From positions 25,417 to 89,416 of the forward strand of contig JBBISI010000004.1 of the NCBI GenBank assembly GCA_037441405.1: DNA of 64,000 nucleotides, written 5' to 3'. Shown here one piece after another: positions 1 through 61,338 of the stretch (position 1 is the stretch's first letter; each line of letters begins with the position of its first letter). The notes beneath the pieces were generated by a model, which was not told the origin of the DNA, searched no databases, and saw only the letters and a program-made list of their open reading frames with translations. Origin of the DNA: Candidatus Cloacimonadota bacterium (GTDB taxonomy: Bacteria; Cloacimonadota; Cloacimonadia; Cloacimonadales; Cloacimonadaceae). Both the position numbers and the translations under genes were made by a program.

Positions 1-492
1 ATAATACGATCCAGCCATATACATATATTCTCGGCGTTTGCCCACGTATTTGAAACCGATCTTTTCATAACACCGGATGCCCCGGTGATTGTATTCCACC
101 ACTTCGAGGGTTATGTTATTCAGATTCATGATATTAAAGCCATAATCCAGGATCAGGGCTGTGGCTTCGGTACCGATCCCCTGATTCCAAAAATTCTTCT
201 CGCCGATGAAGATACCAAGAGAAGCGCGACGGTGGACTTCGTTCACATTATGCAGCCCGCAATTGCCGATCACTTTGTTGGTATCCTTTTCGATGATGGC
301 GAATGTGATGCTGTTTTGTATCAATTCTTCCAATAACTCACGTTCCCTGTCAACACCGATAACAGCCGCTGAAAACAGGACAAACTGACCGACTTCCAGG
401 TCGTTTACCCATTCCGTGTATTTCTCAACATCCTCCATCGATATCGGGGACAAATAGCACTTCTCGCCGATTAACTTCCTAAAATACTTCAT
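1..492 (-). CDS. GNAT family N-acetyltransferase (3' end runs off the window)
   Basis: Absent from the ORF track because there is no stop in the window. My minus-strand translation from the ATG at 492-490 reads MKYFRKLIGEKCYLSPISMEDVEKYTEWVNDLEV...HRRASLGIFIGEKNFWNQGIGTEATALILDYGFNIMNLNNITLEVVEYNHRGIRCYEKIGFKYVGKRREY. It is open to position 1. The NQGIGT acetyl-CoA loop is typical of RimL/SpeG-like GNATs. Confidence 0.8.
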   Translation of the reverse strand, partial: MKYFRKLIGEKCYLSPISMEDVEKYTEWVNDLEVGQFVLFSAAVIGVDRERELLEELIQNSITFAIIEKDTNKVIGNCGLHNVNEVHRRASLGIFIGEKNFWNQGIGTEATALILDYGFNIMNLNNITLEVVEYNHRGIRCYEKIGFKYVGKRREYMYMAGSYY

Positions 493-723
493 GTTATACT
501 CCTCTTGAGATTGCTGGGGTTGTTATACGAAAGTTCGTATTTCCACTTCTATCATTGGCTGTAATTGTCAAGAGCAAATACTCTTCCAATATCAGGCCTT
601 GTTTGGCGAAATTCATCAGGGGATGAGGAGTCAGAGCTATCACTGCCATTGATCTCATACTTGGATTGTCCATAACCCGTATTCAACCGGTAGGGTCGTT
701 GTCCTTCTTCACCTTCTTCCTTG

Positions 724-795
724 CTCCATAACCTTAGTATAACCTTACGACCGTAAGGTTATACTAAGGTTATACTAAGGTTATCAAGTAAGGAG
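724..795 (+). repeat. Foldback element copy 1 (2+3 array of TAAGGTTAT 9-mers, centre GACC)
   Basis: Sequence is CTCCATAACCTTAGTATAACCTTAC-GACC-GTAAGGTTATACTAAGGTTATACTAAGGTTATCAAGTAAGGAG. Arm 728-749 pairs perfectly with 752-773. It lies between the divergent GNAT and rpsO genes. Confidence 0.9.
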
Positions 796-1050
796 AAGAC
801 AAGATGGTATATATTAACCATCAGTCATGATGTAATATGATCAGGATAACCTAAGCAAAGTATTCAATAAACAAGTTACATGCAACTGTCTAACAGAATA
901 TTAGAGCGATGTGCCGCCAGTATTCCCACTAATACCCCAGATCCATGTACTGTGTATTGAGATTGGCAGGGGATAAAAAGCGAGATTGATACGACAAAAT
1001 GCTTTACAAAATTGGAGTAAGCAGAAACATGGCGCCAAAACAAGAAGGAG

Positions 1051-3882: not shown

Positions 3883-5289
3883 ATGAACTGTAAGATAGCC
3901 GATCCATCCCTTGCCGCTTACGGCAGAAAGGAGATCGTCCTGGCAGAAGCAGAGATGCCCGGATTGATGGCGCTTCGGGATAAGTATAAGAATAAGAAAC
4001 CATTGGCAGGAGCCCGGATAACGGGCTCTCTGCATATGACCATTCAGACCGCTGTTCTGATCGAAACGCTGATCTCTCTCGGAGCGGAAGTCCGCTGGGC
4101 AAGCTGCAATATCTTCTCCACTCAGGATCACGCCGCTGCGGCAATTGCCGAGGCTAGAGTGCCCGTCTTTGCCTGGAAGGGTGAGACCCTTGAGGAATAC
4201 TGGTGGTGCACTCTGCAGGCATTGACATGGGAAGATGGCAATACAGCTGATCTGATCATTGACGATGGGGGTGATGCCACTCTGATGATCCATGAGGGAT
4301 GGCGCCTGGAAGAGGAATATGCCCGTGGTGGCGTCTTACCTGAGATATGCAAGGATAACAAAGAACTGGCGATCATCCAGAGATTGCTGATCGAAGGTCT
4401 TTCCTCCAATCCAAACAAATGGCATGATATTGCTGCCAGTGTCCGGGGCGTAAGTGAGGAAACCACGACCGGCGTGCATCGCCTGTATCAGATGCATGAA
4501 ACTGGCCGGCTGCTCTTTCCGGCGTTCAACGTCAATGATTCGGTCACCAAATCCAAGTTTGACAATCTCTATGGCTGTCGTGAATCCTTGGCAGACGGGA
4601 TCAAACGCGGAACAGATATCATGGTGGCCGGAAAAGTCGTTGTCGTCTGTGGTTATGGCGATGTCGGCAAGGGTTGTGCTCAATCCATGCGTGGTTTTGG
4701 CGCTCGGGTCGTTATTACAGAGATCGATCCGATCTGTGCCTTGCAGGCAGCTATGGAAGGGTATGAGGTCTGCACATTGGAGGAAGCATTGGCTGAAGGC
4801 GATATTTTTGTAACCGCCACCGGCAACCGGGATGTGATCACTGTCCGACACATCTTGAGTATGAAAGATAACGCCATTGTCTGCAATATAGGTCACTTTG
4901 ACAATGAGATCCAAGTGGATGCTCTATACGCGATGGAAGACATAAGCAAAGTGAACATCAAACCCCAGGTGGATAAGATCGGACTTCCCAATGGCAGATC
5001 GATCATTCTGCTTTCCGAAGGACGACTGGTCAATTTGGGCAATGCTACCGGTCATCCGTCTTTTGTTATGAGTTGTTCCTTTACCAATCAAGTGCTTGCC
5101 CAGATGGAACTGTGGCAGAACCGTTATGAGATCGGTGTCTATGTCCTGCCCAAGATCCTGGATGAAGAAGTGGCGCGTTTGCATTTGGTTAAATTGAATG
5201 CCCGCCTTACCAAATTGACCGCTTCTCAAGCAGAATATATCGGTGTTTCGCCAGATGGTCCTTATAAAAATGATAATTACAGATACTAA
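3883..5289 (+). CDS. ahcY: Adenosylhomocysteinase
   Basis: 468 aa. Typical SAH hydrolase motifs: [31 protein letters not shown]-binding [18 protein letters not shown], and C-terminal [10 protein letters not shown]. Confidence 0.95.
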
Positions 5290-13947: not shown

Positions 13948-14214
13948 CTAATCATCATCAAATTCATCGTCCGCGTTGCCCGAATCAACGTTTCCAATCA
14001 CCCGCAGGACTGCCGTCTCTTCTTCTGAGTGGAATACGTTCCGGTAAATGAATTGGTGGATGAAAGCGAGGCCGGTCTGAATGCCGTTTCCTATGGGCAG
14101 GAACAGATGAACTTTCCGAGCGGGACCGTTGAATATGTTGGGGGTGTTATACTTAAGGTTATAAACTAACTGAGCCCTTTGCAGAGTTAACCATGGGGAG
14201 AGATGTATCTGAGA
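13948..14214 (-). pseudogene. Possible 3' remnant of an unidentified gene (no start codon)
   Basis: 88 codons are open on the minus strand with no ATG/GTG/TTG start. It ends ...GPARKVHLFLPIGNGIQTGLAFIHQFIYRNVFHSEEETAVLRVIGNVDSGNADDEFDDD then TAG at 13950-13948. The protein-like part stops where the 9-mer half-site at 14141-14165 begins. Confidence 0.3.
14141..14165 (+). repeat. Solo half-site of the foldback family
   Basis: GGGGTGTTATACTTAAGGTTATAAAC compares with the standard distal arm AAGGTTATACTAAGGTTATCAAG. An exact TAAGGTTAT sits at 14154-14162. The junction GGTTATAAACTAACT recurs at 34294-34308. Confidence 0.6.
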
Positions 14215-14228
14215 TTATGTTTAGAAAT

Positions 14229-14258
14229 TTGTCAATTTAGCCACAAAACAGGTAAAAT
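14229..14258 (+). promoter_or_regulatory. Candidate sigma70-type promoter upstream of RNA unit A
   Basis: TTGTCA (14229-14234), 18 nt, TAAAAT (14253-14258). The -10 part is deleted in the paralogous unit B. Confidence 0.3.
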
Positions 14259-14377
14259 CCTCATGAATAGCGTGAAATTTCCATTTAGCGTGCCTTTATC
14301 AAGCCATATTGAGGGAAAATCCCAGAATCTGGGCACACCTCTCTCTTTTTGCCCGACAAAATCCATTGTTATTGCGA

Positions 14378-14638
14378 CGTCGTCAGATGTTAGGGGGTTA
14401 CTTGAATCACCGTTTAAAACGCCACCATGGATCAACCCGCAAGGGTAACCGGACTTTTTGAGGACATTAGTCCGAGAGAAACCCCCTCCCGCTGGAGAAA
14501 GATCCTTCTTTTAATACCCTGGAATATTTCTCTCTCGTTCGATCTGAAGTTTTCACAATGTCCCAAAATACGGAAGGGTTATATATGCCCTCACGACCTG
14601 GAACGGTGGTTGAAACCATCGCCCAACATCTGATGACG
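14378..14638 (+). ncRNA. Candidate structured RNA, unit A (unknown class; paralog of 34339-34598)
   Basis: About 75 percent identical to unit B. A closing helix forms between CGTCGTCAGATGTTAGG (5') and CCCAACATCTGATGACG (3'). Also a CCC-GCAA-GGG hairpin at 14436-14445 and a CGTT-TAA-AACG hairpin at 14411-14421. See findings for the covariation. Confidence 0.55.
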
Positions 14639-14751
14639 CGTGATGTCGCGGGAAGGTGAATGATACTGCTTACCGATAATCTCAATCCCTGTTGATCCCA
14701 ATATGTCCAGTGGTCTCGAGCAGTAAGTTTCCTGCCAAGTATCGAATCCTC

Positions 14752-14826
14752 CCTGCTTGATAACCTTAGTATAACCTTAGTATAACCTTACAGCCGTAAG
14801 GTTATACTAAGGTTATGAAGTGAGGA
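14752..14826 (-). repeat. Foldback element copy 2 (inverted orientation, 3+2 as read on plus; centre AGCC)
   Basis: Sequence is CCTGCTTGATAACCTTAGTATAACCTTAGTATAACCTTAC-AGCC-GTAAGGTTATACTAAGGTTATGAAGTGAGG, the reverse complement of the standard arrangement. Confidence 0.9.
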
Positions 14827-14943
14827 ACAACATGGATAAATACATAACCGGATTGTTTATATGCAAGTTACAGACCGGTGGAGAATGATCTGGTTTTCAG
14901 ATCGCTATCGTCGCGGCTTTCTTTGGCGATGAATTCGTTATTA

Positions 14944-25254: not shown

Positions 25255-25389
25255 ATACTGGAATCACCAATTTCTCCTTACTCCATAACCTTAGTATAAC
25301 CTTACGGTCGTAAGGTTATACTAAGGTTATACTAAGGTTATCAAGTAAGGAGGATAGTAGTTAACTACTCTGAATTATGCAAGGGTCTT
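25255..25389 (+). repeat. Foldback element copy 3, short form (core 25281-25352, centre GGTC)
   Basis: It has the left end ATACTGGAATCACCAATTTC and the right end CTCTGAATTATGCAAGGGTCTT seen in the long forms at 38.3 and 51.3 kb, but lacks their ~190-nt internal segment. Confidence 0.85.
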
Positions 25390-26439: not shown

Positions 26440-27310
26440 TTACGAGTACCCGGGCTGGTGTGATATCCAGTAATCTGATCATATTGGGAACTTCCACTAT
26501 TACCGTTTTAAATCCTCTCACATCCGGATCGGGAACCACCCTAGCTCTTATCATCGTGAGATCGAGGGTTTGGATCGCTTCCTTGTTTCCCTCCACTTTG
26601 ATCGTAACCCGGTTGGGAGTCGATTGTCTGTTTCCCTCCAGGCGTATCGGGATATTATCGATAATCCGTTGTTGGATCTCCTGGTCGATCAGTTCAATCG
26701 TGATCACCGGATCTAAAACAGAAATGTTAACAGCAGGGGATTCCAATTCAATTTCAAATTTTTCCTCGGCTAACATCACCGTAGTGATCGGGTTTGATCG
26801 TATCTGTCTGATGGCATCCAAAGCTCGTCTGGGACCGTAAATCCTTACGGTCTCTGGAGAAATGCGGTATCTGCCGGATTGATATGCATTGCGTGCTCCG
26901 AGGGAAGCGAATGTGATTTCGATGGGTACAGTACGGCTCTCATAGACATCAGTCTGAACGATAAGTTCTTCTTCGTGTGCTGGTTTTAAGATCTCGATAT
27001 CGAGGTTTTCGGGGATATCAATGTGGTAATTGGTCAGCGTGATCGGCAGGTTGCCATCCCTTAAGTTGCTGGCATCGATATCGACGTTGGCTCTTTTCAA
27101 AATCAAACGGATAATGTCTATGCCTTTGCCCCGGACGCCAAAGGAGAGTGTTTTGGGAACATCCTCCAAGGCGATATGGGCTGGCAACTTGGTGAGATTG
27201 ACCACGAACTTGACCGTTGTTTTATGATGTGATACCAGTATCGACTGAATCCAAATGAACAGGGCAAGCAGGACGGAGAAGATCTTGAGACCTATATTGT
27301 GACGGATCAT
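26429..27310 (-). CDS. YbbR-like domain protein (CdaR-like)
   Basis: N-terminal TM segment (LKIFSVLLALFIWIQS) followed by repeated YbbR-type beta domains. Confidence 0.7.
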   Translation of the reverse strand: MIRHNIGLKIFSVLLALFIWIQSILVSHHKTTVKFVVNLTKLPAHIALEDVPKTLSFGVRGKGIDIIRLILKRANVDIDASNLRDGNLPITLTNYHIDIPENLDIEILKPAHEEELIVQTDVYESRTVPIEITFASLGARNAYQSGRYRISPETVRIYGPRRALDAIRQIRSNPITTVMLAEEKFEIELESPAVNISVLDPVITIELIDQEIQQRIIDNIPIRLEGNRQSTPNRVTIKVEGNKEAIQTLDLTMIRARVVPDPDVRGFKTVIVEVPNMIRLLDITPARVLVNER

Positions 27311-28728
27311 GATTCCTGAGAGTAATCCGTGTTTTCTATTTTCATCAATTTAATCTTTTTATACAGGGTTGTTCGTTCCAAACCTATGGCTTTGGATGTT
27401 TGGCTTACACTCCAGTTATGGCGACTCAAATGATAAATTAGGTAATCTCGCTCAAAATCAAACATACTGTCTCTGATTTTACCCTGGAGGAAGTACTTGT
27501 TCGGGGTAAAATTGTTTTCATCACGTGATTTATAAATCTTGTTGTTCAAGTGCTTGATGATGACTTCGTTATTGATTTCTTTCTCGCTGATCATGATGAA
27601 CTTGCAGAAGTTTTTTAGTTCACGGATGTTACCCGGCCATGAATATGACAAGAGAAAGTCGCGCAGTTCACTCAGGTTGGAGTGGTCACTGAAACCAAAT
27701 TTTTCAGAATAACTGGTAATAAAATAACTTATTAGGAGGATGATATCATTTCCTCGCTCCCGCAAAGGGGGCAGTTCGACGATATTACCTTCTATCCTGT
27801 ATAACAGATCTGTACGGAAACTCGTGGGGTTGGACAGATTGGCAAGCGGTGAATTGGTAGCAAAGATCAAGCGGGTATCCACTTTTTTGAGCTTTCCACC
27901 GACCACATGTATCTCTTTGTTTTCAATAGAACGTAAGATCTTGGATTGAGCAGGAAGTGAAAGATGGGTAACCTCATCAAGAAAGAGGATCCCTTCGCGG
28001 CACTCTTCAAAAAAACCAACCTCATACTTATTGTCGCTAGGGAAAGTGCTCTTTGCATGCCCAAAAAGTTCCGATTCGATCAAAGTTTCCGTAAGCGCAC
28101 TGCAGTTGATCGTGTGGAATGGTTTGCCAAAACGGTGGGAATTAATGTAGTAATAATTGGCGGCGATCTCTTTACCAGTGCCGGTTTCGCCAACTAAAAA
28201 AAGATCTTCGTCCGCCTGAGCTAGTTTGATGATTTGGGATCGGACGCGAACGATGGATTCGTCTTCACCGATAAAAGGAAAACTGCGGGTGAATTGCTTT
28301 TTGAGCATGATGTTCTCGATATGAAGACCGATGTTCTCTTCTTCCTGGTGTTTGAGAAGAACAGCATTCTCGATATGGAGAAGCAAATGATTGACGTTGA
28401 AATTGGCACCTTTTTCAATGAAGTGATAAGCGCCCAGATTTCTTATCTCCTCGATTTGTGGGCTAGTAACCTCACCGGATATGACTATTATTTTGTAGTT
28501 TAAATCATGATTGTTCTTTAAATACTTCAATACTTGAATGCCATTTAATCTGCTGCCAATAAGATACACATCAAGCAACACAACATCTGGCTTGAAATTG
28601 CGTAACTCCTGGAAAAACACATCGCTGTTTATGGTGTGCTTGGCTTCAAACCCGTTTTTCGTCAGAAGGACAGATATCTGTTTTGCCAAAATCAGATCGT
28701 CTTCGAGAATAATAACTTTGCCTTTCAT
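27307..28728 (-). CDS. Response regulator with AAA+ sigma54-interaction-type domain and Fis-type HTH (GAFTGA loop degenerate)
   Basis: REC domain (VIILEDD...VVLLDVYL), Walker A GETGTGKE, Walker B ILFLDEV, GNIRELKN, and a C-terminal HTH. The ATG at 28728 follows AAGGGGA; the ORF-track start at 28842 overlaps the upstream gene. Where GAFTGA is expected the sequence reads KSTFPSD. Confidence 0.85.
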   Translation of the reverse strand: MKGKVIILEDDLILAKQISVLLTKNGFEAKHTINSDVFFQELRNFKPDVVLLDVYLIGSRLNGIQVLKYLKNNHDLNYKIIVISGEVTSPQIEEIRNLGAYHFIEKGANFNVNHLLLHIENAVLLKHQEEENIGLHIENIMLKKQFTRSFPFIGEDESIVRVRSQIIKLAQADEDLFLVGETGTGKEIAANYYYINSHRFGKPFHTINCSALTETLIESELFGHAKSTFPSDNKYEVGFFEECREGILFLDEVTHLSLPAQSKILRSIENKEIHVVGGKLKKVDTRLIFATNSPLANLSNPTSFRTDLLYRIEGNIVELPPLRERGNDIILLISYFITSYSEKFGFSDHSNLSELRDFLLSYSWPGNIRELKNFCKFIMISEKEINNEVIIKHLNNKIYKSRDENNFTPNKYFLQGKIRDSMFDFERDYLIYHLSRHNWSVSQTSKAIGLERTTLYKKIKLMKIENTDYSQES

Positions 28729-28741
28729 TACAGATCCCCTT

Positions 28742-29944
28742 TTATAATATTCGTTCTTCCAAATCCGCCAGAGCATTGATATAATAGATATATGCCTGTT
28801 CAGGTGAATCATAAGGAGAGAAATATTTGTGAACGTCGCCATCCTGGAAGTATTTGGTACACATATAATAGAAGTGATCGGAAGTGCTCAGTAGACGCGC
28901 TTCCCTGAGCAACTGCTCATCGCCTTTGCACCGGATTGTTTCGTAGAGGTTATACAGCGTTTCGATAGCGTTCTTTTGCAAGTCATTATCCAGCCAAGCC
29001 GAGAGGTCGCGCTGTTCGTCTGCCCATGATACAGCTTCCGGGAAAGAGATGGATTCCTGCTGATAATTTGCCAAATGTACAGCTTCCATAGGATTGGCAA
29101 AACCGATATTGCCCTTCTCCAATGCCTTGCTGGGAAAATACTTCATAAATTCAAAAATCCCTGATTCTGCCCATTGATGTTCGCCAAAGGTCTCATAATC
29201 CATAAAAAGATTGAGGAACTGATTGCGATTGCCTGTCTCGCATAGGGTAAGGTGATCGATCCAATTGACAAATTTGTCCACTGTAAGCGGATATTCTGGC
29301 CAGTCACGATTGGAAAAACGGAATGCTATATCATCGGCAAGTTGGTAATACTTGAGTAGTAACGTGATGTCTTTGCTATAGTTTTTGTAGGCATACAAGG
29401 GGGAACGCCATTGTAAGATCCGATCCACACCTTCGGTGAGAATGGTCTTGTATCCTTCTATTTCATATATCAGACCGGAAAGCGAATCCTGATAGATCAA
29501 TTCGGTATTACGAAAAGTTACTGGGTTGTAGCCGAATTTGTCTATCATCAATTGTCTATGCATCGCCACCTGATCGAGGAATTCATTGATGTTATACAAA
29601 AAACTCAGCGAGTGAAAATAGGTCTCGCCCAGTAATTCCACACTGCCGGTTCCTACCAGTTTTTCGAATGATTCGATCACTTCCGGTGCGTATTGGGCAA
29701 ATTGCTCATACGCGGTTCCAGTGATGGAAAAGGCGATCTTGAATCTGCCCTCGCATTGCTTGATCAAGTCCAATAGCAGGGCATTGGTAGGCAGGTAACA
29801 TTTCTGTGCCACTTTTTGCATAACGGCTCTATTGAGATCATCATCAAACATCGATCTGCCGCTTCCCACGTCCAGGACGTTCATATGTCGTAACCGGTAG
29901 GGCTGATGGACTTGAAAATAAAGCACGATAAACAGCACCATCAC
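28742..29944 (-). CDS. Glycoside hydrolase family 57 (alpha-amylase/branching-type)
   Basis: N-terminal YFQVHQPYRL and a GH57-like layout; 400 aa. Sits in the glycogen gene cluster. Confidence 0.75.
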   Translation of the reverse strand: MMVLFIVLYFQVHQPYRLRHMNVLDVGSGRSMFDDDLNRAVMQKVAQKCYLPTNALLLDLIKQCEGRFKIAFSITGTAYEQFAQYAPEVIESFEKLVGTGSVELLGETYFHSLSFLYNINEFLDQVAMHRQLMIDKFGYNPVTFRNTELIYQDSLSGLIYEIEGYKTILTEGVDRILQWRSPLYAYKNYSKDITLLLKYYQLADDIAFRFSNRDWPEYPLTVDKFVNWIDHLTLCETGNRNQFLNLFMDYETFGEHQWAESGIFEFMKYFPSKALEKGNIGFANPMEAVHLANYQQESISFPEAVSWADEQRDLSAWLDNDLQKNAIETLYNLYETIRCKGDEQLLREARLLSTSDHFYYMCTKYFQDGDVHKYFSPYDSPEQAYIYYINALADLEERIL

Positions 29945-33445: not shown

Positions 33446-33610
33446 TTGCAACTTGACAACGAATACTGCAAATTGTGCAGCGAAAGCTGCAATCTGTCGC
33501 ATCGTATGACATCCTTACTCATCCTTACTAAGACCCTTTTGAGTGGTTTTTGACAGGATATCTGCAAATTCGATCACCGAAAATTGCAAATTGTGACAGG
33601 CTTTCTGCAT
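33446..33610. promoter_or_regulatory. Array of TGCAA(A/T)(T/C)TG-type motifs upstream of the glycogen operon
   Basis: Sites: TTGCAACTTGACAACG, the 15-bp palindrome CTGCAAATTGTGCAG (33466-33480), CTGCAATCTGTCGCA, CTGCAAATTCGATCA and TTGCAAATTGTGACA (33584-33598). The function is inferred only. Confidence 0.3.
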
Positions 33611-33925
33611 ATCCAGTTATATCGAAATATGGTAAAGAGGAATAAGACTTATATTTCCTGATACCAATCTTGAATACTGGCGGGAAGCATACCCATGTTC
33701 AATACCATCACTTTATTACCGTTTGATTATTTAATAGTATTTCAACGCAGATAGTTAGTTGGTCTTGACCATATCTCAGTGAATGACTATACTTGTTTTG
33801 TAATCAAATAATTGAACTTCTCGAGTATAAGCTTTTTCCTTTCTTCAATAAAGCGTTCATAATTATCGAGTCTCCATAAAGTGCGATCCTTAGGTATCAG
33901 GTGGAGATCTAGATAATCATCGCCT

Positions 33926-34156
33926 TTGTCTTCGAACCAATTCACTGGAGGAGAATCCCATGACCTTGCCTGGTATGAACAGAAAGCGGTGGCAGTATTG
34001 CTTGCACTGCTGTCGTTGGGATTCAAGGATATCATCGTCGGTCCGACCTTGCCCGGATTCCTCTCGACAAATGTGGCAAAAGTCATCACGGATGCCTTCG
34101 GACTACGCAAGATCACCACACCTGAAGAGGATATCAGGTTCATGATGGGCTCATAG
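33926..34156 (+). pseudogene. hcp: 3' remnant of hybrid-cluster protein (hydroxylamine reductase) gene
   Basis: Translation ...[65 protein letters not shown] plus stop matches my recollection of the conserved Hcp C-terminus. The other ~480 codons of a normal hcp are absent. An in-frame stop lies at 33914. Confidence 0.7.
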
Positions 34157-34165
34157 TTCATCATT

Positions 34166-34217
34166 AGTATAACCTTACGACTGTAAGGTTATACTAAGGT
34201 TATCAAGCAAGGGGGAC
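34166..34217 (+). repeat. Foldback element copy 4 (truncated left arm, 1+2 9-mers, centre GACT)
   Basis: Sequence is TTAGTATAACCTTAC-GACT-GTAAGGTTATACTAAGGTTATCAAGCAAGGGGG. It starts 9 nt after the hcp remnant stop. Confidence 0.85.
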
Positions 34218-34338
34218 AGTGTCGTCCAGTGGTCAAGCCAACTCTCTGACTTATTAAATAAGACCCCTGAATTATTTGGGGCATTGTTCTTTCGGTTATA
34301 AACTAACTAATTGTCAGACAAGATCCTGTATCATTGCA

Positions 34339-34598
34339 GCGTTATCAGATGTTGGGTGGTGACTTCAGTCACCGCGTCGGAACGACGCTAAAGATCTACC
34401 CGCAAGGGTATCCGGACTTTTTGAGGACTATAGTCCGAGACTAATCCCCTCTCGCTGGACAGGGATCCTTCTTTCAATGCGTGGTATATGTCCTTCGTTC
34501 GGACTGAAGTCCGCACTATGTCTAATAACCCAATAAGGTTGTATGTATTCTCACGATCCGGAACGGTGGTAAAACCACCGCCTAACATCTGATGGCGC
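34339..34598 (+). ncRNA. Candidate structured RNA, unit B (unknown class; paralog of 14378-14638)
   Basis: A 19-23 bp closing helix forms between GCGTTATCAGATGTTGGGTGG and CCGCCTAACATCTGATGGCGC, with 4 G-U pairs in plus sense. Hairpins: GGTGAC-TTCA-GTCACC; GCGTCG-GAA-CGACGC (34374-34388); CCC-GCAA-GGG (34399-34408); CGGAC-TGAA-GTCCG; GGTGG-TAAAA-CCACC. Confidence 0.6.
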
Positions 34599-34646
34599 TG
34601 GAAAACTAATTGGATTCATCTGATGCCGCTGGAAAACTTATTATAG
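34586..34646 (+). repeat. Tandem duplication of the 3' closing-strand segment of unit B
   Basis: CATCTGATGGCGCTGGAAAACTAATTGGATT (34586-34616) is followed by CATCTGATGCCGCTGGAAAACTTATTATAG (34617-34646). Confidence 0.85.
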
Positions 34647-34770
34647 TGCTTTCTTTAGCTCTCAATCTCTGATGAGCCCGTTGCATGCAATGGTCCCCGG
34701 TATCAAATACCGGTCGTTCGCCCATATTCCCCAATTGATCAGCGATCGGTATCGGCATCTGAACCACCTA

Positions 34771-34804
34771 CAAAACCAGACCACCCTGCGGGAAGGTGGT
34801 CTGG
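34771..34804 (-). terminator. Intrinsic terminator of the 936-aa protein gene
   Basis: Perfect 10-bp stem CCAGACCACC / GGTGGTCTGG (34776-34785 / 34795-34804). On the minus strand it is followed by TTTTG (34771-34775). It lies 20 nt after the stop. Confidence 0.8.
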
Positions 34805-34824
34805 CTGATTCGATTTGAATGAGG

Positions 34825-37635
34825 TTATTTGGAGAGGACTATTTTGCGGACATAGTGATCGTCTTTGGTTCTCATCCGGACATGATAGATACCCGTGGAA
34901 CACAAAGAACCACCATCATCCTTTCCATCCCATTTCACGCTGTGAAAACCGGCGCTCCTGGATTCACTGATCAAAGATCGGACAAGTTGTCCACGAAGGT
35001 TGTAGATACCGAGACGGACAAAACTGGGCGCGCTTAATGCGTATCGGATGGTAGTCTGGGGATTGAAGGGATTGGGGAAGACATTGGAGATCCCGTTCTT
35101 TACAGGGATCACCGGCATTTGGTCTGAACCGTCGATATCAAAATGAATGACAACGGGCCCGTATATGGTTGCCGAACCGTCATAATCGGCACTTTCCAGC
35201 CAATAATAGTAGTAACCGTCAGCAAGGAACTCCTGTTCGCGATAGAGATAATTTTGGGTTTGAGTAGTATTAGAGGCTGGGATGAAGACATCCAACAACA
35301 GCGCTTCATCCAAATAACCGGTAGTGCCGCGATAGATCCGGAAACCCGCTACATTGGTCTCAGTATAAGTCACCCAAGATAACTGAATGAATCCACTGGC
35401 ACTGATCGACGCTGTGAATGAGGACAATTGGACCGGTAAAGGCAGGTCCGCTTCAGAGATCGTCCATAATAAACTTGCTTTGCTGATACTGCCCAGATCG
35501 CTAATGTCGGTGATGGTCACATACATGTATGATCCGATTTCTATGGCGGCATAATTACCGAGCAGTTGCCAAGTGCCATTATCGTACCACACGCTCATCG
35601 TCGTCGAAGTCGAGATGGTGGTCGGATAGCGGAAGGTTACATCCACTGTGTTCGTAAATAAGGCAGATGTCATCCAGTGGCGACCGATGCTATTGGTCGG
35701 ACCGGTTTCGTATTTTGCAACGTTAAGAGCGCTGAATACGGCATCGTCGGAGGTGAAATAGATATCCTTATCTATATAGTGCAGGGTATGTCCATCAAGA
35801 GCCAGATTTCCATCAGTGAAGGTCAGGTTTCTCACATCCACATCACCGGTGAGTGTCTTTGTAGAGCCATTGTTGATCGCCATGTTATAGTATGTCCCGG
35901 GAGCGACATCCTGATCTCCGGCATAGGCATATTCAACCGTAGTACCGGTTCCGATCGTGCCAATGGTCGGTATGGTGTCGTTCTCAATCATCAATGTGGC
36001 ATAGTCATTGACATTGATGGTTCCAGTAAAGGTGTATGCCGCCGGGATCACCATCGTAACGGCATTCGTTCCGTCACCCAATTCGGTGGCGACGGCCGAA
36101 CTGGCGTTGCCGCCCAAGGTCTTGATCCCGGTTCCTCTCACTCTAAGGTTATGGTATGCTTTGCCGGCGATCGTCTGATTGGCGAGGGAGGAATAGATGA
36201 CGGTCGAACCGCTGCTCAAAGTTCCGAGGATGGGATTGGTGGTGTTTTGCAGTTCAAGCGTTCCGGCATTCACGATATTCACGGTGCCAACCAACAGGGC
36301 AGCAGCGGGAACAAGCAATGTAACGGCGTTGGTTCCATCGCCAATATCGATGAGGTTATCTGCCTTTACTGTGGACCAAATGGTCTTGATACCCCCGCCC
36401 CGGATGCTCAGATCCCAGTAATCGTAGGGGATTACATTCTGATTGCCTGACGCGGAATAACGAACAGCAGAGCCCGGATATAGGACGCCAAGAGTTGGGT
36501 ATGTAGTATTTTGCAAATTAAGGATGGCATGTCGGAGCACATCTATGGAGCCGGTATAGGTGTAATTACTGGGCACGGTGAAAGTGATGGGATTGATACC
36601 ATTACCAAGATTAACCAGCGTTCCGCCGCCGGAAACAACCCAGTCAGCGGTTAGGGTGGGTGATGGGTTGTTCCAGATATAAAAGCCCTGCCCGGGCGTC
36701 GTGAAATTGGAGGGGGCGGTGCCGCTACCGTCAGAATTGCCACCCCAAGTAGCCAGAAGATTCAAGCCACCGGTGGATTTGGAAAAGTAATTTGGGTATG
36801 CCACAAAGGCGACATCGTTGGTGTAAGTGGTGCCATCGATGAACATGTTCGCCACATTGCCGGTACTGTTTTCACCATAGGCCATAAAGGAGTTAATTAT
36901 TGTATTTTGTCCCAATCCTGCTCGGGCAAGATCATTGGCGATCAGGATGCCATTGACGAAGACATCGGTAGTGTATCTGGCTACTGTATGTGCCACACCA
37001 TTGATGCTATAATTGACGGCAGATTGTCCCGGACCGTTATTCAAGCGTAATTCGATCACAAAGTTACGACCCTGTTCGAATGGTTCTGTGGCAAAGGAAG
37101 CCCATCCGGTCGTTGTCTTGTAGGATGTTGTTATGCTGCCCCCGGCGCCAAAGACAAATCTCAGGCCAAAGTAGATGTCCGCATGAGCAAGCGGTGCGTT
37201 TGTTGTGAATGAAGTTCCACGACCGTAGAGAAAGTAGAATGTGCCCGAATCAGCAAATCCGCCGGTGCTGTTACCCAGGCGTAACTGGGTCTTGAAATAG
37301 GAATTGCGGGTGGCATTTGTGAATTCAGTAACGGCAAATTTGTTGATCCCACCCGAACCGGAGGTAGTGGGAGCAGCGATCCGCAGTTCTGTGTCGGCAC
37401 CAAAATTCACAAGACCCGGATTTTCCCGGTAGAATCCACCGCCACCAGCGCTGCTCATAAAAACTCTGTAAGTACCCCCGCCAGTGGGTGTATTAGGGAA
37501 AAAAGTCGTGGAAGCGCCGCCTGCGGTAGTATAAGAACCGGTACCGGTTCCATAATCATATCCGTAGATCGACTGTCCGTACAGCGATATGTGCATCAGG
37601 AACAGTAGAACAAACACTACCAGTGTTAGTTTCAT
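34825..37635 (-). CDS. Large secreted protein with C-terminal T9SS/FlgD-Ig-type sorting domain and three ~80-aa internal repeats
   Basis: Signal peptide MKLTLVVFVLLFLMHISLYG. C-terminus VFPNPFNPQTTIRYALSAPSFVRLGIYNLRGQLVRSL...GFHSVKWDGKDDGGSLCSTGIYHVRM is typical of Por/T9SS-type CTDs. Repeats cover about aa 340-418, 428-506 and 517-594. Confidence 0.8.
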   Translation of the reverse strand: MKLTLVVFVLLFLMHISLYGQSIYGYDYGTGTGSYTTAGGASTTFFPNTPTGGGTYRVFMSSAGGGGFYRENPGLVNFGADTELRIAAPTTSGSGGINKFAVTEFTNATRNSYFKTQLRLGNSTGGFADSGTFYFLYGRGTSFTTNAPLAHADIYFGLRFVFGAGGSITTSYKTTTGWASFATEPFEQGRNFVIELRLNNGPGQSAVNYSINGVAHTVARYTTDVFVNGILIANDLARAGLGQNTIINSFMAYGENSTGNVANMFIDGTTYTNDVAFVAYPNYFSKSTGGLNLLATWGGNSDGSGTAPSNFTTPGQGFYIWNNPSPTLTADWVVSGGGTLVNLGNGINPITFTVPSNYTYTGSIDVLRHAILNLQNTTYPTLGVLYPGSAVRYSASGNQNVIPYDYWDLSIRGGGIKTIWSTVKADNLIDIGDGTNAVTLLVPAAALLVGTVNIVNAGTLELQNTTNPILGTLSSGSTVIYSSLANQTIAGKAYHNLRVRGTGIKTLGGNASSAVATELGDGTNAVTMVIPAAYTFTGTINVNDYATLMIENDTIPTIGTIGTGTTVEYAYAGDQDVAPGTYYNMAINNGSTKTLTGDVDVRNLTFTDGNLALDGHTLHYIDKDIYFTSDDAVFSALNVAKYETGPTNSIGRHWMTSALFTNTVDVTFRYPTTISTSTTMSVWYDNGTWQLLGNYAAIEIGSYMYVTITDISDLGSISKASLLWTISEADLPLPVQLSSFTASISASGFIQLSWVTYTETNVAGFRIYRGTTGYLDEALLLDVFIPASNTTQTQNYLYREQEFLADGYYYYWLESADYDGSATIYGPVVIHFDIDGSDQMPVIPVKNGISNVFPNPFNPQTTIRYALSAPSFVRLGIYNLRGQLVRSLISESRSAGFHSVKWDGKDDGGSLCSTGIYHVRMRTKDDHYVRKIVLSK

Positions 37636-37884: not shown

Positions 37885-38259
37885 CTACTTCAGCCGGTAG
37901 AGTTTGATTCTGTGGCAGAGAGTGTTTTCTGATACATTGAGAAGAATGGTTGCGTCTTTCTGTTTACCATTGCATTTGATCAAGGCATCCCGGATGATAT
38001 CCTTCTCTTGTTCTGCCAATGTGGTGGACAGGTTGTAATCCTTGGGCAGTAGTTTAGCGGAATTTTGTGCCATGGCAATGGATTTGTTGTCCCACGTTCT
38101 GAGTTCGGAGGTAATGATCAAACTCTCGATCATGTTTTTGAGTTCTCTGACATTTCCGGCAAACTCATATTGTTCCACGGCGTGATAGAACTTGTCCTCG
38201 ATGACAGGTTTTGGCTTTTTGGTCTCGGTACAGAACATCTCGACAAAATGGACGATCAA
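37885..38259 (-). pseudogene. 3' fragment of a sigma54-dependent activator (end of AAA+ domain plus Fis-type HTH only)
   Basis: The 124-aa ORF holds only ...EQYEFAGNVRELKNMIESL... and the C-terminal HTH (KQKDATILLNVSENTLCHRIKLY). Walker A/B, GAFTGA and any sensor domain are missing. Upstream sequence is replaced by repeat element copy 5, starting ~38268. Confidence 0.7.
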
Positions 38260-38267
38260 TAGTTAAG

Positions 38268-38583
38268 AGCGTTGCACATACTGGAACAGCCAAATTTCGA
38301 GAATATGAAAAAACAGTATCGTCTCTCCTTCCGGCGCAGTCAGTTACAATTAGAGGATTATGCCTGTCAGATAGTCTGAATACTCGTTGAGTCCAACGCT
38401 CTGAGTTATCTAACGGTCTCAAGAAGGTTTAGATTCAAGCGTAATAGCGCTTTCTTCTGAGTTCTCCCTGCTTAATAACCTTAGTATAACCTTACGGTCG
38501 TAAGGTTATACTAAGGTTATACTAAGGTTATCAAGCAAGGAGGATAATTTTAAGTTAACTCTCTGAATTATTCACCGGTCTTT
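38268..38583 (+). repeat. Foldback element copy 5, long form (core 38464-38544, centre GGTC)
   Basis: About 315 nt, collinear with 51301-51616 at roughly 75-80 percent identity. Layout: left end ATACTGGAAC, ~190-nt internal segment, foldback core, right end CTCTGAATTATTCACCGGTCTTT. Confidence 0.85.
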
Positions 38584-51300: not shown

Positions 51301-51616
51301 GACGTTATGCATACTGGAATCACTATATTTCGAGACCGTGAAAAAACGATATTGACTCTCTTTCTAGCGCAACTCATAACTACTGAGGATTATGTCTGGT
51401 AGGTAATTTGGATACTCGTTGATTCAACCGCTCTGAGTTATTCAACGGTCTGAAGAAGGTTTAGATTCAAGCGGTATAGTGCTTTCTCCTGAGTTCTCCC
51501 TGCTTTATAACCTTAGTATAACCTTACGTTCGTAAGGTTATACTAAGGTTATACTAAGGTTATCAAGCAAGGAGGAATAATTTTAAATCAGGTCTCTGAA
51601 TTCTTCAACGGTCTTT
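51301..51616 (+). repeat. Foldback element copy 6, long form (core 51496-51576, centre GTTC)
   Basis: Collinear with 38268-38583, including ATACTGGAATCAC, the internal segment, the core, and the right end CTCTGAATTCTTCAACGGTCTTT. Confidence 0.85.
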
Positions 51617-61068: not shown

Positions 61069-61088
61069 TGTTTTGCCTACTCCTGCCT

Positions 61089-61160
61089 GCTCCATAACCT
61101 TAGTATAACCTTACGGCCGTAAGGTTATACTAAGGTTATACTAAGGTTATCAAGCAAGGA
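61089..61160 (+). repeat. Foldback element copy 7 (2+3, centre GGCC)
   Basis: Sequence is CTCCATAACCTTAGTATAACCTTAC-GGCC-GTAAGGTTATACTAAGGTTATACTAAGGTTATCAAGCAAGGAG. It starts 21 nt after the lptG stop, between convergent genes. Confidence 0.9.
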
Positions 61161-61338
61161 GAAGAGTGTCGCTCTTTGTGGATACTTGCCTGATCTAATC
61201 CTCGGGTCAATCTCAAGACCGCTTCGAGTACTCGGGATAATCTCGTAGCGAGCCTGAGGAAAAAGTGGGATCAAGCATTAAGCGACCAGCCCCGGCAATG
61301 TATCCGGGGCCGGGCTGACACTGAAATATGGGTTATTC

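Follow-up and report, generated by a model that had tools for sequence, protein, structure and literature searches.

Do two related non-coding stretches in a Cloacimonadota chromosome represent a new structured RNA, or can the hairpins that they share be explained in another way? The question is raised by a pair of paralogous units of ~260 nt, here called copies A and B, located in a 64-kb chromosomal stretch of a Cloacimonadota bacterium (the window, by which we mean the whole of the DNA analyzed). A first-pass annotation had proposed a structured RNA, pointing to conserved helices, compensatory changes and a functional plus strand.

Extent and organization of the element

Both units are present and non-coding, as are all of the helices named for them (Table 1). 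Blastn aligns the two copies with 75% identity over 292 nt, which agrees with the approximate figure given originally; the value is 72% over 387 aligned nucleotides with flanks, and varies between 72 and 79% with the amount of flank included. With all filters off, nhmmer recovers exactly these two copies from the window, with E = 4e-129 and 3e-120, and no others. Homology extends farther than was first recognized, by ~85 nt upstream and ~100 nt downstream of the core (roughly 34253-34697 in copy B). The whole conserved unit measures ~440 bp and consists of an upstream module, a leader, the 260-nt core and a tail of ~100 nt. The bases that flank the inverted repeats are conserved between copies as part of this longer unit.

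The upstream module of copy B is common to L002 and L004, the two copies of a sister genome described below. It contains a terminator-like match at 34265-34281 and resembles the right-arm module of the 85-nt palindrome family that populates the same window. The TATAAAC motif is conserved in three of the four copies, with CATTAAC in L004, and is rightly placed to be a candidate promoter of the element.

Individual copies have been altered extensively. The tandem duplication of the 3' closing strand reported for copy B is real, the two repeats being 92% identical, while copy A has a different duplication of 10 nt (14631-14640 and 14641-14650) and no such duplication is present in L002. In the core of copy A, several of the local hairpins are broken. 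The 174-nt insert in this copy shows no similarity to any other part of the window or to the fetched loci; a sigma-70-like promoter match (TTGTCA, 18-nt spacer, TAAAAT) is found within it at 14229-14258.

Table 1. Coordinates of the repeat units, their parts and the neighboring palindromes (window positions unless a locus of another genome is named)
Feature	Position	Strand	Remarks
Upstream module, copy B	34253-34308	+	Short hairpin CCCC...GGGG within 34260-34282, T-rich run, TATAAAC at 34297-34303
Leader, copy B (AATTGTCAGACAAGATCC...)	34309-34338	+	Least conserved segment, 57-80% identity between copies
Core, copy B	34339-34598	.	260-nt whole-length imperfect palindrome; 85/123 dyad positions Watson-Crick
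Terminal 18-nt inverted repeats (closing strands), copy B	34339-34356 and 34581-34598		
GGTGAC-TTCA-GTCACC hairpin, copy B	34358-34373		Nested in core
GCGTCG-GAA-CGACGC hairpin, copy B	34374-34388		Nested in core
ACCC-GCAA-GGGT hairpin, copy B	34398-34409		Nested in core
GGAC-NNNN-GTCC hairpin, copy B	34425-34436		Nested in core
Mirror partners of core hairpins, copy B	34500-34513, 34527-34540, 34558-34566, 34565-34579		GGTGG-TAAAA-CCACC at 34565-34579
31-nt tandem duplication, copy B	34586-34646	+	3' terminal repeat and start of tail, 34586-34616 and 34617-34646; copy B only
Tail, copy B (ATAGTGCTTTCT...CTCTGATGAGCCC...AATGGTCCCC)	34647-34698	+	Common to A and L002, 63-79% identity; homology stops near GGTC
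Upstream module, copy A (GGGACCGTTGAATATGTTGGGGG...TAAGGTTATAAACTAACT)	14122-14171	+	Parted from the remainder of the copy by a 174-nt unrelated insert
Insert unique to copy A	14172-14345		174 nt
Leader, copy A	14346-14377	+	
Core, copy A	14378-14640	.	Most decayed copy; 80/122 dyad positions Watson-Crick; 78-81% identity to other copies
Closing strands, copy A	14378-14391 and 14625-14640		
CGTT-TAA-AACG hairpin, copy A	14411-14421		
ACCC-GCAA-GGGT hairpin, copy A	14435-14446		
GGAC-NNNN-GTCC hairpin, copy A	14462-14473		
GGTGG-TTGAAA-CCATC hairpin, copy A	14605-14620		
Tail, copy A	14641-14717	+	Runs into adjoining 85-nt palindrome
L002 copy, CAYZZE01	4359-4775		Full length; 90/124 dyad positions Watson-Crick
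L004 copy, CAYZZE01	1-209		Cut by contig end at element centre
Element end sequence quoted for comparison with IS ends			GCAGCGYTATCAGATGTT
85-nt family, window	710-801, 14742-14833, 25267-25358, 34154-34220, 38457-38548, 51489-51580, 61076-61167		
85-nt family member upstream of copy B	34154-34220	.	33 nt upstream of copy B, directly after hcp 3' remnant
85-nt family member downstream of copy A	14742-14833	.	Just downstream of copy A; ~110 nt past stop codon of convergent aminotransferase gene
85-nt family, relatives	L002 4029-4112, L022 9345-9428, L023 4972-5078, L024 1416-1449		
20-nt module CTCTGARTTATYNANSGGTC	25368-25387, 38399-38418, 38561-38580, 51431-51450, 51594-51613		

Genomic setting

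All 40 of the large ORFs scanned against Pfam, which are spread along the window, are housekeeping genes; they include PNPase, the Rnf complex, aminotransferases, glycogen metabolism, GDH, PFK, DnaX, ligase, LptFG and T9SS-tailed proteins. The closest homologs of the glycogen debranching enzyme (GDE), whose gene adjoins copy B, are from Cloacimonadota. The Pfam scans detect no transposase, integrase, reverse transcriptase (RT), TnpB, IscB, IS110, other recombinase or REP-associated transposase in the 64 kb, and the earlier statement that the units have no RT, TnpB, IscB or recombinase partner holds for the window.

Copy B is preceded by a 3' remnant of hcp (hybrid-cluster protein) and an 85-nt palindrome, and is followed by a convergent gene for a 936-aa T9SS protein. 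Copy A lies after a 161-aa ORF, and a convergent aminotransferase gene stands opposite, with an 85-nt palindrome in between. The downstream gene is convergent in all three complete copies, and the neighboring genes differ among all four copies.

The region around copy B has also been rearranged. A breakpoint is located at 33447-34150, and synteny with the sister MAG and with locus L023 stops 88 nt upstream of the GDE gene. Missing from the window is the hcp-cupin-Fer4-TetR block, which is complete in L023; L022, truncated by its contig end, retains only the TetR end of the block. A 190-nt 3' part of hcp (33961-34149, 80% identical to L023 5162-5350) is all that survives in the window, so the 125-aa minus-strand ORF at 33787-34164 is probably spurious. 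A strong G+C-rich hairpin at 34779-34808 (CCAGACCACC…GGTGGTCTGG) precedes TTTTGT when read on the minus strand. It probably terminates transcription of the 936-aa T9SS gene and would also limit any plus-strand transcript of copy B. Farther downstream, an isolated 124-aa ORF (37885-38259, minus strand) is limited to two domains of a sigma-54 activator, AAA-lid and Fis-type HTH, and is probably a gene fragment; a full-length paralog is encoded at 27307-28842.

Dyad symmetry and folding

The core forms an imperfect palindrome from end to end. Complementarity between its 5' and 3' halves amounts to 66-73% of ~123 positions in the three full copies, and each hairpin of the 5' arm is mirrored by a partner in the 3' arm. 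Accordingly, nhmmer also detects the two window copies on their reverse strand, with E = 1e-18 and 5e-15. With four small palindromes in each arm of such a core, two quite different folds are possible. The single-sequence fold of copy B is a closing helix that encloses local hairpins. The L002 fold and the RNAalifold consensus are instead rods, in which the entire 5' half pairs with the entire 3' half (86 pairs in RNAalifold). These models hold equally well across the copies, with ~83% of pairs retained in each, and the high paired fraction relative to slid controls merely restates the palindromic nature of the sequences.

Neither strand is preferred. The copies were each aligned to their own reverse complement with no credit given to G-U pairs, and the remaining mismatches comprise 22 G·T and 25 A·C over the three full copies (8/7, 9/12 and 5/6 per copy). 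The multi-hairpin model derived from copy B gives a similar balance, with nine G-U and eight A·C in copy A and three of each in L002. Both strands fold far better than shuffled sequences, with z-scores of -7.65 (plus) and -6.57 (minus) for copy B, and -5.41 and -2.06 for copy A. The minimum free energies favor the plus strand in copies B and A by 8 kcal/mol and the minus strand in L002 by 12 kcal/mol (-135.5 kcal/mol, z = -11.4, vs -123.3 kcal/mol, z = -10.3, for plus). Given the balanced mismatches and the better minus-strand folding of L002, the proposal that the plus strand is the functional sense is not supported.

The helices common to the two window copies are therefore the inherited outcome of dyad symmetry at the DNA level, which any copy of a whole-length palindromic core carries, and not evidence of selection at the RNA level. 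Their presence needs no such selection as an explanation.

Covariation and conservation

The hairpin with the GCAA loop is invariant in all four copies. Elsewhere the loops vary and the stems are fixed, as in GGAC-UAUA/AUUA/UUCA/UUGA-GUCC. Within the closing helix, all three differences between the units are single-step (U-G/U-A/C-G, U-G/C-G and A-U/G-U). The second hairpin, described in the first-pass annotation as a fully compensated replacement, turns out to occupy different alignment columns in copies B and A; it is a new hairpin in a shifted register.

Compensatory changes do not exceed chance under either model. For the multi-hairpin fold, three pairs are changed on both sides compared with 1.8 in shuffles, and 111 of 500 shuffles reach this count; for the rod, the values are two and 1.3, with 203 of 500 shuffles reaching two (four copies and low power in each case). 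A lack of covariation was the outcome that the first-pass annotation had itself named as speaking against its proposal, and it is the outcome of the obtainable data. Covariation beyond shuffles on one strand, as would be sought in a structured RNA generally, is likewise not observed among these four sequences, a sample of low power. Conservation of paired columns (75%) is judged equal to that of unpaired columns (69-70%).

Some features do hint at constraint, possibly directional. The core is better conserved than its flanks (79-90% vs 57-82%), and the 5' arm is better conserved than the 3' arm by 1-4 points in all three pairs. Nevertheless, none of the RNA-specific arguments survives the tests, the low power of four sequences being acknowledged, and the examination of the palindrome, strand, covariation and column conservation does not reveal a new structured RNA.

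Known RNA families and coding potential

A scan of the whole window against Rfam 15 at the gathering threshold returns no matches, which agrees with the earlier remark that the units show no conserved motifs of RNase P, tmRNA, SRP or 6S RNA. When region 34000-34900 is searched at E values up to 10, only five noise matches to snoRNA and miRNA models are obtained, none above 17 bits. The families covered include 6S, RNase P, tmRNA, SRP, HEARO, ROOL, GOLLD, OLE and raiA, none of which is matched, and on this basis 6S, RNase P, tmRNA and SRP are rejected. Retron, omega and bridge RNAs are rejected on the lack of a partner gene, in the window as well as in the flanks of L002 and L004. A riboswitch or leader does not fit copy B, which has no downstream plus-strand gene (the next gene is convergent), and an integron attC site is rejected on size and the lack of a cassette array. 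The guide- or ribozyme-like role once suggested finds no support in a family that is multi-copy, narrowly distributed and surrounded by unrelated genes.

A small protein, or the pseudogene remnant of one, could be imagined from a 68-aa ORF in copy A (14427-14633) and a 77-aa ORF in L002 (4467-4700), which share an open plus-strand reading frame that ends at a common TGA. This frame is closed in copy B, and the start codon is not conserved. The two ORFs are only ~51% identical at the amino acid level in a hand alignment, far below the nucleotide identity (74% overall and ~80% in the core). Moreover, every reading frame of every copy contains at least four stops, substitutions are distributed evenly over codon positions (10/14/12 and 9/21/15), and the longest pseudo-ORF finds no homolog among 5.8 billion proteins. 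On these grounds a coding gene or pseudogene is rejected; we give this reading almost no credence and regard it as effectively refuted.

Copies in other genomes

A 21-nt motif that is invariant in all four copies was used for an exact scan of one genome per species (185,579 species). Copies are found in this way only in the present genome and in the sister MAG CAYZZE01, which contains two, L002 and L004, on separate contigs. The contig bearing L004 begins in the middle of the copy, which is what an assembly broken by an inverted repeat should look like, and the one sister contig extending to the site of copy A has its end within the 85-nt palindrome. No true copy is present in JGI metagenomes (exact 19-nt motif) or viral contigs (exact-motif scan), and blastn finds no match in plasmid and phage databases; other loci with exact motifs were judged by nhmmer to be chance matches. 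Unfiltered nhmmer detects no weaker copies in the 330 kb examined. Loci of relatives in which the GDE protein is 67-81% identical to that of the window carry no copy, nor does the region downstream of the orthologous aminotransferase gene in relatives of ~76% nucleotide identity. Contigs with GDE or aminotransferase homologs represent the syntenic block of the sister MAG and five more distant relatives, and they yield no further copy. Literature searches on Cloacimonadota repeats or MITEs turned up nothing relevant.

An 8.2-kb syntenic block of the sister MAG aligns with the window at 92.9% identity; third codon positions of the two genomes agree at 88.5% and their intergenic DNA at 82%. Pairwise identity among copies B, L002 and L004 is 84-90%, whether the pair comes from one genome or from both, and copy A is about equally distant from each (Table 1), giving a star-like pattern. 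Divergence between copies is thus close to the neutral divergence of the two genomes. The pattern is that of a repeat family whose expansion took place near or before the time when the two genomes separated, followed by drift at a near-neutral rate. The genes beside L002 and L004 have no counterpart around copy A or B. In both loci the upstream gene is divergent, and transcription there would consequently need a promoter within the element.

Neighboring palindromic repeats

The 85-nt family consists of near-perfect palindromes built from the 11-mer TAAGGTTATAC, with two inverted copies, three direct copies and the outer arms CTCCYTGCTT / AAGCAAGGAG. Copy B does contain the degenerate version of this 11-mer attributed to it (TAAGGTTGTAT), although at 34534-34544 and not at 34544-34554. 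The stems of the family are invariant and the central 4 nt vary (GACC, AGCC, GGTC, GACT, GTTC, GGCC). Six of the seven window members are located 5-340 nt past the stop codon of a gene; the first has no annotated upstream gene in the window. Members are conserved at 91-100%, L023 included, although its coding DNA matches the window at only 74%, and this conservation indicates that the family is either constrained or actively homogenized in a REP/REPIN-like manner. Contigs of related assemblies end inside these palindromes.

A 20-nt module, CTCTGARTTATYNANSGGTC, stands beside several of the 85-nt palindromes in direct orientation (five matches vs 0.24 expected by chance) and resembles the upstream module of the 260-nt units (…CCCTGAATTATTTGGGGC…). 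Two blocks of ~310 nt, 38277-38583 and 51310-51616, are each centred on an 85-nt palindrome and are 84% identical, which suggests a larger composite repeat.

Comparison with known elements

ERIC/IRU and YPAL are whole-length palindromic intergenic repeats of enterobacteria, ~127-170 nt long and present in tens to hundreds of copies per genome. The unit is similarly non-coding, intergenic and multi-copy, with imperfect dyad symmetry along the entire element; its copies differ by internal insertions, and it would form a long hairpin on either strand if transcribed. It is about twice as long, however (260-nt core, 440-nt frame), with four nested hairpins per arm, and has no sequence similarity to these repeats. 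It is also known from just one Cloacimonadota species pair, with at least two copies per genome and four in all.

REP, BIME and REPIN elements are short palindromic units (20-40 nt) of high copy number associated with RAYT (REP-associated tyrosine transposase), and BIMEs provide binding sites for gyrase, IHF and Pol I. The 260-nt unit has nested hairpins of 12-16 nt, four known copies and no RAYT gene within the window. Like these elements, it is a lineage-specific mosaic of small hairpins in alternating orientation, located downstream of genes or between convergent genes, with stems kept and loops variable. It is far larger than a REP doublet, though, and has no recognized GTAG-type conserved head. 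The neighboring 85-nt palindromes fit the REP/REPIN description better than the unit does. Articles on REP, BIME and REPIN elements include PMC2817692, PMC3116915, PMC3333891 and PMC8266576.

The likeness to MITEs (Correia, RUP, Nezha) lies in the 100-400 bp size class, the lack of coding capacity, the terminal inverted repeats of at least 18 bp (18 nt in copy B, with equivalents in A and L002), the broken assemblies, and the several diverged copies at unrelated sites, with one pair in the window and another pair in the sister MAG, on different contigs. The flanks (…ATCATT, core, GGAAAAC…) are not direct repeats, so that no target-site duplication is seen, no cognate IS with matching ends has been found, and conserved asymmetric flanks extend outside the inverted repeats; mobility is an inference. 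Strict MITE membership is not shown, since a target-site duplication is lacking and the boundaries lie outside the inverted repeats.

Among RNAs, 6S and other rod-like regulators also form a long irregular rod of a few hundred nucleotides closed by both ends. The unit matches no 6S model at E values up to 10, has no strand preference, and exists as several paralogs that are not conserved in related genera, in contrast to one or two conserved genes. The omega RNAs of IscB/TnpB, the IS110 bridge RNAs and the retron ncRNAs are likewise structured, non-coding, 150-300 nt in length and closed by a helix, but the unit has no partner gene in the 64 kb or in the L002 and L004 flanks and no HEARO-type match in Rfam.

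Interpretation

On balance, and with considerable reserve, we think it probable that the unit is a lineage-specific, non-coding, multi-copy palindromic intergenic repeat of the MITE/ERIC/BIME type, restricted to one narrow Cloacimonadota lineage. The element of ~440 bp would be organized around a 260-bp core made from two mirrored arms, each with four small hairpins. The family would have spread as DNA within this lineage in the fashion of MITEs, ERICs or BIMEs, and its copies would now be drifting apart. Tolerance of gross change agrees with this, as seen in the 174-nt insert of copy A and in the different tandem duplications at the hairpin base in copies B and A. Any activity would be independent of orientation, with hairpins arising in single-stranded DNA or in transcripts that read through the element on either strand; for example, RNA 3' ends might be blocked or stabilized between convergent genes, where the complete copies sit. 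Several observations go against the repeat reading. All copies have non-palindromic flanks in common (upstream module, leader and tail), in a fixed orientation to the core; flanks of this kind would not belong to a simple element delimited by terminal inverted repeats. There is neither a target-site duplication nor a transposase in the 64 kb. The loops that vary over fixed stems, and the copy B hairpin re-formed in a new register, are also counted on this side.

The same flanks in their fixed orientation, together with TATAAAC, the conservation of the core, the retained stems and the divergent upstream genes, keep a transcribed RNA alive as an explanation. The unit would then be a family of plus-strand small RNA genes with its own promoter in the upstream module, folding as a closing helix around eight hairpins in a pseudo-symmetric arrangement and acting in trans, for instance as a protein sponge or scaffold. 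Such a gene would account for the very strong plus-strand folding relative to shuffles (z = -7.65, -5.41 and -10.3), for the TATAAAC module, whose orientation and spacing do not differ among B, L002 and L004, and for the divergent gene upstream of L002 and L004, as expected of an independent gene. The invariant GCAA-loop hairpin, the stems kept as loops vary, and the closing-helix pair that reads U-G, U-A and C-G across the three full copies point the same way, and with no Rfam match the RNA would be new. Yet its wobble pairs show no strand bias, L002 folds better on the minus strand, covariation does not rise above shuffles, and conservation is equal in paired and unpaired columns. A search for a conserved terminator found none, and the insert in copy A separates the supposed promoter from the core. 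The narrow distribution, the multiple copies with unrelated neighbors and a divergence at about the neutral level of both genomes also count against an RNA gene. We consider this explanation unlikely. More doubtful still is its specific form, a structured plus-strand RNA family of the lineage with its own promoter, whose eight-hairpin pseudo-two-fold symmetry arose by inverted duplication and which acts in trans, for instance through titration of a dimeric protein that binds RNA or DNA.

Just as doubtful is a cis element that serves the host at the DNA level, either a palindromic cluster of protein-binding or cruciform sites between convergent operons or a recombinase site, used as double-stranded or extruded DNA. 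The strand-independent symmetry suits this idea, as do the perfect operator-like sub-palindromes (GGTGAC-TTCA-GTCACC, with a recurring GAC-TNNA-GTC core), the convergent downstream gene faced by all three complete copies, and the 85-nt palindromes that adjoin both window copies and L002. Against it, there is no known candidate for a binding protein, the window contains no further occurrence of the GGACTNNAGTCC motif, and the position of only three placed complete copies is statistically uninformative. Copy A is visibly decaying, and the element is missing from the corresponding places in close relatives.

Biological significance

Read as a repeat, the unit is of modest importance, as a further palindromic element confined to one lineage, in a candidate phylum that has received little study. 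If it were expressed as an RNA, it would be a new RNA family of narrow taxonomic reach. For annotators the case carries a caution, namely that helices conserved between paralogous copies of a palindromic repeat do not amount to evidence for a structured RNA. Repeats of this kind explain assembly breaks in the lineage, where contigs of related genomes end inside them, and the element can be used as a strain marker. Together, the 260-nt unit and the much better conserved 85-nt palindromes make up a layered system of intergenic hairpin repeats around the 3' ends of genes.
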